From Dictyostelium discoideum (Eukaryota): 64,000 nucleotides of DNA. Where the stretch lies: assembly GCA_000004695.1 (NCBI GenBank), contig CM000150.2, positions 3,328,001-3,392,000 of the forward strand, given 5' to 3'. Of this stretch, positions 47,140-64,000 are shown piece after piece (within the stretch, counting starts at the first letter, position 1; every line of letters starts with the position of its first letter). The notes under the pieces are model-generated. The model made no database searches. It saw nothing but the letters and a program-made list of their open reading frames with translations, and was not told where the DNA came from. Both the position numbers and the translations under genes were made by a program.

Positions 47140-50478
<3,339 letters not shown>

Positions 50479-60869: not shown

Positions 60870-62021
60870 TTAAAAGATTTTAGAAGAGTAAGAAAAAGTA
60901 TGTTTTATACGATCTAAAATATTTCTCTTCCAACCTTCTTCAGTTTTTTCAAACTCGTCAATTGGAATTCCAGTTTGAACGATTTCAACATTTGTTAAAG
61001 GTTTACCATCAACACTGAATGTAATGGTAACTTGAGATTCGACACCTTTACTCCAATTATCCAATCTCCAAGTTTGAACAATCTTTGAGCCTGGTGATAA
61101 AGTTTTATTTACACCTTGAATACTACCACCATATAATGAAAATTTACCGCCTTCTTCATTTTCAAAAGTACAATCACTTTGAGTGAATGCTCTTAATTTA
61201 TTAATGTTTACAAATACATCATATGCATCCATTGGTGAACATTGGAATTCTTCTTTTAATTTCAATGTTTTAGTAGTTGGTTTTTTAGTTGGTGTTGAAT
61301 TAAAAATAACAGTTGATGATGTTACCTTTGGTACTGTATTGGTGGTGGTGGTAGTGTTGGTAGTAGTGTTGGCAGTTTGTTGTTGTTGTGATTGTTCAAC
61401 TTGTTTTTTTGAAACAAATTCTTTTTTTAATAATTTAATAAATTCTTGACATTGTGATTGTACAAATGGTACACCGTGTGACTTAAGTAAAGATTGAACC
61501 ATGTTTATGGATTGTTTAGTTTCATCATTATCGGCAGTGGTATTGATAGTGTATCTTACAGTTGGGGCTTCGTCACCATTCTCGTCGGAAATATATGGTA
61601 CTGTGAATTCACCAGAGATGGTTTTCTTTTGAGTTATTATTGGTTCTGCTGGTTTACCGTCGTCATCCTCCTCGTCAATATCATCTGCAGCGCCTTTAGA
61701 TTTAGTGGTTGGTGGTGGTGGTAAAACCTTTTTAGGTTTGAAAACGACTTCCCAATTCATTTTAACATCTAGTTCATATAAAAAGATGGTTTTACCTTTA
61801 CGATTATTTGCTGTACATTCACCTGAAACAACTGGAGTTGATGAGATTTTGAATGTATATTCATCTGTTTCTTGAATAACCTTTTTATCGAATAATCCAC
61901 CAATTGTATTCTTACTCCATGGTAAACAATCTTTCTCTGACCAATGCCAACCATTAACATTATGTCCATCCTCTCTATTTTCAACAATCCATCTTGGGTC
62001 ACCTTCTCCTACTTTTGCCAT
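60870..62021 (-). CDS. Aha1 (activator of Hsp90 ATPase, AHSA1 family) homologue, 383 aa
   Basis: Single ORF. N-domain MAKVGEGDPRWIVENREDGHNVNGWHWSEKDCLPWSKNTIGGLF, compared with human ADPRWIVEERADATNVNNWHWTERD. Start domain ..NNRKGKTIFLYELDVKMNW. C-terminal domain EFQCSPMDAYDVFVNINKLRAFTQSDCTFENEEGGKFSLYGGSIQG..IVQTWRLDNWSKG..TITF..EEGWKRNILDRIKHTF. Confidence 0.9.
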   Translation of the reverse strand: MAKVGEGDPRWIVENREDGHNVNGWHWSEKDCLPWSKNTIGGLFDKKVIQETDEYTFKISSTPVVSGECTANNRKGKTIFLYELDVKMNWEVVFKPKKVLPPPPTTKSKGAADDIDEEDDDGKPAEPIITQKKTISGEFTVPYISDENGDEAPTVRYTINTTADNDETKQSINMVQSLLKSHGVPFVQSQCQEFIKLLKKEFVSKKQVEQSQQQQTANTTTNTTTTTNTVPKVTSSTVIFNSTPTKKPTTKTLKLKEEFQCSPMDAYDVFVNINKLRAFTQSDCTFENEEGGKFSLYGGSIQGVNKTLSPGSKIVQTWRLDNWSKGVESQVTITFSVDGKPLTNVEIVQTGIPIDEFEKTEEGWKRNILDRIKHTFSYSSKIF

Positions 62022-62319
62022 CTTTTAAAAATTAAAAATTAAAAAAAATAAACAAATAGAATATATATAAAAAAAAAAAAAAAAAAAAAATGAATAAATA
62101 AATAAATGAATAATAATAATAAATAATAATAAAAATAAAATAAAATAAAAATAAAAAAAATGTTAATATTAGATATTTATAAAAAAAATAAAAAAAAAGA
62201 AGTTAACCTACTTTTTATTTAATTATTATTTGTTAAGGGGTTTTGGAAAAAATAAAAATAAATAAAAAAAAAAAAAAAATAAAAATAAAAAAAAATATGA
62301 CAAAAAAAAAAAAAAAAAA

Positions 62320-62383
<64 letters not shown>

Positions 62384-62582
62384 AAAATTTTAGCGATTTT
62401 TAAAATAAAATTCAATTAAATATAACGAAAAAGAACTTCGAAAACTTTGGTATTAAATTATTTTACCACTACTTTTTTTTTTTTTTTAAATAATATCCAA
62501 ATTAGCATTTTTTTTTTTTTTTCACAATATTTATTTTAAAAATTATTAACACAAAAAAAAAAAAAAAAAAAAAATTTTTTTA

Positions 62583-62646
62583 TCCCACACAACGACCCTG
62601 ACACTGATAGCTTAAATTAATGGAAATACTAAACTAAGGGTGTCAG
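62583..62646 (+). promoter_or_regulatory. GC-richer intergenic island with a DUSE-like motif (TCCCACAC) and a 7-bp inverted repeat (ctgacac...gtgtcag). Possible small ncRNA promoter or gene
   Basis: tatcccacacaacgaccctgacactgatagcttaaattaatggaaatactaaactaagggtgtcagaagctcgtatatag. This stands out from the flanking homopolymer A/T. A TATA-like tatatag follows at 62654-60. Confidence 0.2.
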
Positions 62647-63068
62647 AAGCTCGTATATAGAATAAAAAAAATTAATTATTTTATTTCTTTTTTAGAGATA
62701 ACAAAAAAAAAAAAAAACTCTGTGTGTTAATAAAAATTTGAAAAAACAAAAAACAAAAAAAAAATTCATTTTTTTTTTTAAAAAAAAAAAAAATAAATAA
62801 AAAATAAAAAAATAAAAAAAAAAAAAAAAATGGAAAAAATAAAAAAAAAAAATTCGTGACAAAACGAACCATTCACTGTTAATCAAATATATATATATAT
62901 TAATTGTATAATAATAATTAGTATAACCAAAGCATCAATAATATAAAATATATTTATATACAAAGATTTTCAAAAATTTAATAATAATAATAATAAAAAT
63001 ATAAAAAATAAAAATAAATAAACCATATAAATATAAAAATAAACAAATAATATAGAAATAGATATACA

Positions 63069-63491
63069 ATGAGAGGAACAGTCAGAGATTTAGCAATTAG
63101 ATATTTAGGTGTTGGTGCCAAAAAAGTTTGGTTAGATCCAACTCAAATGGATAAAATTAGCAAAGTTAAAACAAGTATGTTTATATCATTTTTTTTTTTT
63201 TTATTATTATTGATCATCATCATCATCATCATTATGGTGATGGCATTGGTAATACATACAATGATAATCATAATAATAAAAATTCATTTTTATTTTAATT
63301 ATTAATTCCTTTTTTTTTTTTTTATTTATGAATATTCCCTAGGAGAGGGAATTAGAGAATTAATAGCACAAGGCCTTATTAAAAGAAAGTTTACAATTGG
63401 TGGATCATACAAACCTTCACGTGGTCCCTTTTTATTTCCAAAAGATGAATTTTTTAAATTAAATAAAAACCATATCACTAAAAATGAATAA
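63069..63491 (+). CDS. Short ribosomal-protein-L19e-like protein (about 85 aa, 2 exons)
   Basis: join(63069..63174, 63343..63491). Donor A|GTATGT, acceptor tccctAG, phase 1. Product MRGTVRDLAIRYLGVGAKKVWLDPTQMDKISKVKT-R-EGIRELIAQGLIKRKFTIGGSYKPSRGPFLFPKDEFFKLNKNHITKNE. This parallels the RPL19 N-terminus ([39 protein letters not shown]) but lacks the basic C-terminal half of a real eL19. Confidence 0.55.
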
Positions 63492-63594
63492 ATTAAAATA
63501 AAATATAAAATATAGAATATAAAATATTACTTTTTTTTTTTTTTCCAAAATTTTATTTTAATTTTAAAATTAATATAATTATTATTATTAATAA

Positions 63595-63630
<36 letters not shown>

Positions 63631-63648
63631 TTTTTTTTTTTAAACTTA

Positions 63649-64000
63649 TTACAAAATTGACCAAGCGAAATCCATTTGTTCTTTAACAACTTTTGGTAAT
63701 TGTGGAAGTGTATTTTTTGGAATTAAATAACTGGAAATATTGAATAAATCCAAGAAAATTTTATAACGATCACCAACGGTTGTACGTAAATAATGATAAC
63801 CAGAAGAACCACCAGTACCAATCTTGGCACCAATAATTCTTTGTACCATCATTGTATGACGGAATCTCCACATTGTTAATAATTCATCAATTTCTGTTAA
63901 AAGATTTAAAATAAGGAATGGTGTATGGAAAATTGGTTCATCTTTATATAAATAAATTAAAATTGCTGATTGTAATGCTCTTTTTTTTTTAAAAAAAAAT
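63649..64000 (-). CDS. tdo: Tryptophan 2,3-dioxygenase (TDO), 3' portion of the CDS. The 5' end lies beyond the window
   Basis: The minus-strand ORF ends at 63649. ..[93 protein letters not shown] aligns with human TDO2 ..[86 protein letters not shown]. Confidence 0.8.
   Translation of the reverse strand, partial: [116 protein letters not shown]

Follow-up and report, generated by a model that had tools for sequence, protein, structure and literature searches.

Paralogues of ribosomal proteins that have been turned into assembly factors are central to the building of eukaryotic ribosomes. To our knowledge, the members of this group, namely Rlp24, Mrt4, Rlp7 and Imp3, have all been recognized in yeast and are pan-eukaryotic. 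Rlp24, the paralogue of eL24, is a placeholder on the pre-60S particle and has only the N-terminal domain in common with the ribosomal protein, the C-terminus being different (PMC5425277). Mrt4, Rlp7 and Imp3, the paralogues of uL10, uL30 and uS4, respectively, are of the same general class, that is, duplicated RNA-binding modules of ribosomal proteins which were made into non-ribosomal assembly factors, and together these proteins provide a precedent for such a change of use (PMC5425277, PMC3814368). The gene considered here, DDB_G0270622 of Dictyostelium discoideum, stands in a comparable relation to eL19. It is located on the forward strand at positions 63069–63491 of a stretch of 64,000 nucleotides (hereafter the window; assembly GCA_000004695.1, contig CM000150.2, positions 3,328,001 to 3,392,000), and the results from sequence comparisons make it highly probable that it is a complete, selected and stand-alone paralogue of the L19e domain. 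Its product, referred to below as the mini-protein, is like Rlp24 in sharing only the N-terminal domain of the ribosomal protein, and each of the two coexists with the canonical gene, which in the case of the mini-protein is Rpl19 (PMC7072818). Rlp24, in contrast, is conserved across eukaryotes and was located experimentally on pre-60S particles, whereas the mini-protein is found, among named sequences, only in Amoebozoa and is known from its sequence. A further difference is that the similarity of Mrt4, Rlp7 and Imp3 extends over most of the ribosomal protein, and that these three factors are both pan-eukaryotic and essential.

Canonical eL19 includes a globular domain at the N-terminus, a middle region and, in eukaryotes, a C-terminal helix. 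The first two of these parts are embedded in ribosomal RNA (rRNA) and are common to archaea, while the eukaryotic C-terminal helix forms bridge eB12 with ES6S; the one truncation of eL19 on which this source reports is the loss of the helix, which is tolerated in yeast (PMC9932298). In D. discoideum, the canonical protein Rpl19 (DDB0214854), which has calmodulin-binding residues 123–143, is encoded elsewhere in the genome (PMC7072818). This gene is known from the literature, and the comparisons with canonical eL19 given below were made with proteins other than this one.

The sequence-only reading of the window had proposed a two-exon mini-gene at this position, and this was confirmed: the spliced product is 100% identical to DDB_G0270622, a hypothetical protein of D. 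discoideum AX4. The composition of the window (22.6% GC with long A/T homopolymer runs) fits this organism. The length of 85 amino acids given in that reading holds for the codons when the stop is counted, the protein itself having 84 amino acids (9.7 kDa; isoelectric point 10.4) and being strongly basic. Residues 4–51 match the N-terminal domain family Ribosomal_L19e (Pfam PF01280) with 58.9 bits (E value 4.8e-16; curated cut-off 25 bits), in agreement with the eL19 signature which had been seen at the N-terminus. The absence of the C-terminal half of eL19 was likewise borne out. Canonical eL19 proteins carry PF01280 together with PF25476, which includes the middle region; the mini-protein has no match to PF25476, a scan of it for the middle-region motif GRHxGxGKRKGT was negative, and it ends at residue 84, with no sequence left for the C-terminal helix and no long helix in residues 51–84 of the AlphaFold model. 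Compared with canonical eL19, the mini-protein shares the N-terminal globular domain and is without the middle region (GRHxGxGKRKGT..ARxP), the eB12 helix and the calmodulin-binding segment; it is shorter still than archaeal L19e. Within the shared domain it has the signature LAM/LAI and TKTRE, where canonical eL19 (RLAAS, NE, ANSRQ, RKLxKDG) has LAAS and ANSRQ.

The results from structural comparisons indicate that the fold of this domain is retained. In the AlphaFold model the predicted local distance difference test (pLDDT) score is 84–96 for residues 1–50 and 56–72 for residues 51–84, and a Foldseek search with the model retrieved eL19 chains only. Of 73 sequence matches in the PDB, 60 were listed, and each of these is an L19/eL19 chain, with eL19 from Neurospora ranking first (E value 2.5e-9). 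Chain R of PDB 8etj, an early pre-60S state from S. pombe in which 56 N-terminal residues of eL19 were modelled, superimposes on the model of the mini-protein with a root-mean-square deviation of 1.1 Å. Basic residues in columns 7, 20, 36, 40, 49 and 51 (D. discoideum numbering) are common to all four groups compared, archaeal, canonical and paralogue sequences included. The primary structure can be divided into three parts, the eL19 N-domain (approximately residues 4–51), a 15-residue extension reaching to residue 66, and a freely evolving tail. The extension contains the motif RKFTxxGSxKxxxGPFL, which is invariant in the aligned dictyostelid orthologues (R50, K51, F52, T53, G56, S57, K59, G63, P64, F65, and L66) and which canonical eL19 lacks. 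It is predicted from the model to be unfolded on its own.

Orthologues of 78–94 amino acids were found in at least eight dictyostelids. The homologue search retrieved annotated proteins of 67–94 amino acids from D. firmibasis, D. purpureum, Heterostelium album, Cavenderia fasciculata and Tieghemostelium lacteum, together with one EukProt sequence, and the exhaustive profile search described below added Acytostelium subglobosum as well as an environmental sequence of 80 amino acids which carries the extension motif. The open reading frame (ORF) is intact in all orthologues. Six species were compared at the DNA level (D. discoideum, D. firmibasis, D. purpureum, H. album, C. fasciculata, and T. 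lacteum). In all six, the start codons coincide, and the intron interrupts the identical Arg codon in the identical phase (ACAA/GT...AG/GAGARGG, the slashes marking the splice sites). The introns at the five other loci are 74–317 nucleotides long, each with in-frame stops, and retention of the D. discoideum intron would likewise produce a premature stop. A comparison of D. discoideum with D. firmibasis gives an identity of 87–91% for the exons and of 57% for the intron, the latter being close to the 53% obtained with shuffled sequence. The ratio of nonsynonymous to synonymous substitution rates (dN/dS; Nei-Gojobori) for residues 1–66 is 0.09–0.30, with a bootstrap 95% confidence interval below 1 except for the closest pair. 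After residue 66, dN/dS is indistinguishable from 1 between distant dictyostelids, and the tail is unalignable beyond each lineage. The order Aha1, mini-gene, tryptophan 2,3-dioxygenase (TDO) is shared by D. discoideum, D. firmibasis and D. purpureum, and in T. lacteum the mini-gene adjoins TDO. Taken together, these comparisons indicate that the gene is kept as a mini-gene under purifying selection throughout Dictyostelia.

Three interpretations had been offered in the sequence-only reading: an L19e-fold paralogue that had acquired a new function, a decaying retro-copy, or a gene with unseen 3’ exons. The last of these amounts to an incomplete gene model, in which further 3’ (or 5’) exons would encode the middle and C-terminal parts of eL19, and the shortness of the product, but nothing else, speaks for it. 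The independent gene models in eight dictyostelids end at 78–94 amino acids, and the start is identical in six of them. Downstream, the stop of the convergent TDO gene is reached after only 157 bp, with a GC content of 3%, and all frames of this interval (63492–63648) consist of stops or of homopolymer and low-complexity sequence, with no further exon. A tblastn search with full-length human RPL19 against the 64-kb window detected no similarity to the middle or C-terminal regions of eL19; it returned exon 1 plus K/E-rich low-complexity matches. Moreover, the complete ORFs of the related transcript-derived sequences from Clydonella and Endostelium are also without the middle and C-terminal regions. 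The truncated architecture and the low codon bias would be accounted for if the gene were a pseudogene, or a decaying retro-copy, of rpl19 with a chance ORF. This explanation does not accord with a GT-AG intron of 168 nucleotides whose position and phase are common to six species, with intact ORFs, with a core dN/dS of 0.09–0.30, with exons far better conserved than an intron at the level of shuffled sequence (0.57 vs 0.53), with the persistence of the gene in all sampled dictyostelid lineages and of relatives across Amoebozoa, or with a tree position that is not beside a dictyostelid rpl19 but outside the clade of canonical eL19. Because of the shared intron and start, the selection on the core, the synteny, the 3% GC sequence downstream and the negative tblastn result, both of these explanations are effectively refuted, missing exons being very improbable and a retro-copy extremely so. 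The remaining interpretation, a paralogue with the L19e fold, is retained, and the conservation across Dictyostelia, the purifying selection on the core and the position outside the canonical clade suggest that it is probably neofunctionalised.

One of the orthologous gene models deserves separate comment. In T. lacteum, the annotated DLAC_10476 (67 amino acids; positions 1775–2086 of the locus used, from LODT01000045.1) begins at a Met inside the protein. Translation from an ATG further upstream in the same frame yields MYSPKELAMRIMKVG..., with a total of 78 amino acids, and this protein aligns with the orthologues from residue 1. The annotated model is N-terminally mis-called and needs correcting.

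The dictyostelid proteins belong to a wider family. In an exhaustive HMMER profile search of 1.84 billion representative sequences, a diffuse set of short proteins of approximately 100–200 amino acids, having PF01280 only, ranked directly below the dictyostelids. These short paralogues are without the GRHxGxGKRKGT middle motif and without the helix, and their C-termini are unrelated between lineages; the RLAAS and ANSRQ of canonical eL19 are replaced in them by R(L/M)AM and A(K/R)TRE. All species-named members are from Amoebozoa, and include representatives of Discosea (Clydonella, Stenamoeba, Dermamoeba, and Endostelium), Tubulinea (Echinamoeba and Copromyxa) and Evosea (Phalansterium and Planoprotostelium). 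This range is that of the named sequences, 16 further members being environmental, MMETSP or Tara sequences. The pan-eukaryotic conservation typical of ribosomal-like proteins was not seen among the named members, and no newly named taxa were gained when the alignment of the paralogues was used in a word-indexed search. By their source names, the Clydonella and Endostelium sequences are complete ORFs from Trinity transcriptomes, and it follows from this origin that these members of the family are transcribed. The contig of another member (P0097) appears to be an uninterrupted ORF and is possibly transcript-derived. In Planoprotostelium fungivorum, the annotated protein PROFUN_04076 (532 amino acids) joins a mannosyltransferase (Glyco_transf_15; residues 92–355) to an eL19-like paralogue (residues 432–478). 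This is most likely an annotation fusion of two adjacent genes, and the model needs correcting.

The relation of the dictyostelid domain to these short paralogues and to bona fide eL19 was assessed with profile hidden Markov models (HMMs) and with neighbour-joining trees computed on 48 ungapped positions (300 bootstraps). The domain scores 68–86 bits with an HMM of the non-dictyostelid short paralogues, from which the dictyostelids were left out, 50–74 bits with an archaeal L19e HMM, and 45–52 bits with an HMM of canonical eukaryotic eL19. Its mean identity is 0.46 to the paralogues, 0.41 to canonical eL19 and 0.42 to archaeal L19e. In the trees, a canonical eL19 clade excludes all dictyostelid and short paralogue proteins in 221 of 300 bootstraps (74%), and a dictyostelid clade is recovered in 159 of 300. 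Non-optimal codon usage and a position outside the canonical clade further set the mini-protein apart from canonical eL19. We conclude from these sequence relationships that the duplication is old, dating at least to the base of Amoebozoa, and that the gene did not arise by recent copying of rpl19 within the dictyostelids. The higher score with the archaeal HMM prompted us to consider horizontal transfer from Archaea, which was rejected as unsupported: mean identity to the archaeal and canonical proteins is equal (0.42 vs 0.41), and a spliceosomal intron is present.

As to function, the best explanation as a whole, which we put forward tentatively and at somewhat less than an even chance, combines a complete stand-alone paralogue of the eL19 N-domain with a transient, ribosomal-like role in association with the (pre-)60S particle. 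The retained N-domain would be the part of eL19 that is able to sit alone on pre-60S rRNA, since chain R of 8etj models only the 56 N-terminal residues of eL19. Because it retains the fold, and with it the basic columns that archaeal and eukaryotic L19e have in common, the mini-protein would most likely bind structured rRNA in the manner of the eL19 N-domain. The structural tasks of eL19 are beyond it, as it lacks the middle region, the eB12 helix and the calmodulin-binding segment, and it cannot take the place of eL19. Codon usage is mostly A/T-ending (TTT for five of five Phe, GAT for four of four Asp, AAA for 11 of 12 Lys), a pattern which, by the list of optimal codons that Sharp and Devine reportedly drew up in 1989, is unlike that of highly expressed Dictyostelium genes such as those for ribosomal proteins. 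Since the codon usage is unlike that of a highly expressed ribosomal-protein gene, we propose a low-abundance factor. It would be a ribosomal-like protein, analogous to Rlp24 in its relation to eL24, and would act in a transient manner on cytosolic (pre-)60S particles, either at the eL19 N-domain site or close to it. The conserved unfolded extension would become ordered on its binding partner. Extensions of ribosomal proteins are in general unfolded until the partner is bound.

Several points weigh against such a role and against the grouping from which it starts. We know of no eL19-derived factor of this kind in 60S assembly of yeast or human. Among the 60 matches listed of 73–75 found in the PDB (E ≤ 1 or ≤ 10) there is no chain other than eL19. 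On a stoichiometric place of the mini-protein in the mature 60S subunit there are two indirect observations, the non-optimal codon usage and the finding of no second L19e-like chain among the PDB matches listed, which include the large ribosomal subunit of Entamoeba (9v1i). The dictyostelids and the other paralogues form a near-clade in the best tree (F1 0.95), which is recovered exactly in 11 of 300 bootstraps, and the link between them is based on 48 aligned positions. The codon-usage argument is drawn from 84 codons and the list of optimal codons named above. Finally, Rlp7 and Imp3 bind to sites other than those of their own ribosomal proteins (PMC3814368), which is a warning against assuming that the mini-protein occupies the site of eL19. 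For this last reason, and as the function is inferred from sequence, a specific pre-60S- or 60S-associated role, argued by analogy, may be entertained as a possibility and is held with less confidence than the explanation as a whole.

The most serious alternative, although in itself quite unlikely, is that the eL19 N-domain paralogue was recruited as an accessory protein of the amoebozoan mitoribosome and binds mitochondrial rRNA. Some non-dictyostelid members of the family have basic N-terminal extensions in which acidic residues are few or absent; that of P0030 comprises approximately 90 residues, with an abundance of R, K, S and T, and that of P0041, from Phalansterium, approximately 24. 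The dictyostelid domain scores higher with the archaeal than with the canonical HMM, as given above, the low codon bias would suit a low-abundance organellar protein, and the Dictyostelium mitoribosome is unsolved. In a compendium of D. discoideum mitochondrial proteins, one of 50 ribosomal-family proteins is designated ‘from archaea’ by its PANTHER family (PMC9118663), and this protein might be DDB_G0270622. Against recruitment to mitochondria, a cleavable presequence would seem to find no space in the dictyostelid proteins, where the fold starts at residue 4–5 and there is an acidic residue at 7–8; most members of the family have an N-terminal extension of only 0–3 residues; and the PDB matches listed showed no L19e-like chain other than L19/eL19.

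A non-ribosomal function, in which the helical domain is reused for binding of another nucleic acid or of a protein and the GPFL extension serves as a linear interaction motif, is also unlikely, if a little less so. It would be consistent with the change of canonical signature residues (QKR to PKE/VRD, and ANSRQ to TKTRE), with an extension motif that is lineage-specific and predicted to be unfolded, with C-terminal tails that are wholly different between amoebozoan lineages, and with a weak, sub-threshold match of the mini-protein to HTH_17 (E value 0.053). The retention of the fold and of the shared basic columns, on which the proposal of eL19-like rRNA binding is based, was described above.

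Set against these alternatives, the (pre-)60S-associated paralogue of the eL19 N-domain is the reading we prefer. A broader formulation, which we regard as somewhat unlikely, is that of a lineage-specific amoebozoan ‘RLP19’, i.e., an ancient eL19 paralogue consisting of the N-domain only, which would serve either as a transient placeholder for eL19 in nucleolar pre-60S particles or as a cytosolic-type recruit of the amoebozoan mitoribosome. If this were true, ‘RLP19’ would be the first ribosome factor derived from eL19, and a feature of ribosome assembly or composition that is absent from the yeast and human paradigms. An eL19 paralogue restricted to Amoebozoa would also indicate that new ribosome factors continue to arise in this way in individual lineages, and would offer, in Dictyostelium, a small and genetically tractable means of studying the docking site of eL19 or the mitoribosome, which is unsolved. 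Public databases already contain the gene model with its Pfam domain, under no other name than ‘hypothetical protein’ or ‘eL19 domain-containing protein’. In the literature we found no description of DDB_G0270622, of an L19e-like or eL19-like mini-protein, or of eL19 in connection with the mitoribosome, and no solved structure. With respect to annotation, the question is settled, DDB_G0270622 being a complete gene and neither a fragment nor a pseudogene.

The features of the locus are collected in the table. Upstream of the mini-gene, and divergent from it, lies the Aha1 gene, a neighbour which D. purpureum and D. firmibasis have likewise kept. The TDO gene is convergent with the mini-gene.

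Table. Features of the DDB_G0270622 locus and its neighbours (coordinates of the window)
Feature	Position	Strand	Characteristics
Exon 1 of DDB_G0270622	63069..63174	+	ATG at 63069, codons 1–35, first base of the Arg36 codon
Phase-1 spliceosomal intron	63175..63342	+	GTATGT...CCCTAG, 168 nt, 18% GC, within the Arg36 codon
Exon 2 of DDB_G0270622	63343..63491	+	last two bases of codon 36, codons 37–84, TAA at 63489–63491
Sequence coding for the globular N-domain of eL19 (residues 4–51)	63078..63389	+	interrupted by the intron
Extension RKFTIGGSYKPSRGPFL, residues 50–66	63384..63434	+	family-specific; ortholog alignment, dN/dS, pLDDT
C-terminal tail, residues 67–84	63435..63488	+	fast-evolving; dN/dS; no alignment across lineages
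Convergent intergenic region	63492..63648	.	157 bp, 3% GC; mini-gene stop to TDO stop; without coding potential
Homologue of Aha1 (Hsp90 ATPase activator)	60870-62021	-	intronless ORF of 383 amino acids; Pfam Aha1_N + AHSA1
TDO, C-terminal part	63649-63999	-	continues past the window end; Pfam Trp_dioxygenase, E value 1.3e-35, profile positions 260–346

A long lysine/glutamate-rich, low-complexity coding sequence at approximately 47880–50240 on the reverse strand was matched by the K/R/E-rich C-terminus of human RPL19 in the tblastn search. Homology between the two was rejected, the match being compositional.

An Rfam scan of positions 62022–63700 gave no match, and scans for bacterial promoters and terminators gave background levels, which are irrelevant to a eukaryote. 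Within the intergenic region of A/T homopolymers upstream of the mini-gene, positions 62585–62665 form an island of more normal base composition, with the motif TCCCACAC directly upstream. For this island there was no Rfam match, and no conservation was detected in the corresponding loci of D. firmibasis or D. purpureum. It contains the inverted repeat CTGACAC...GTGTCAG, and its minus strand folds with -25.1 kcal/mol (z -4.76); the island could represent a small non-coding RNA, a regulatory element, or nothing.
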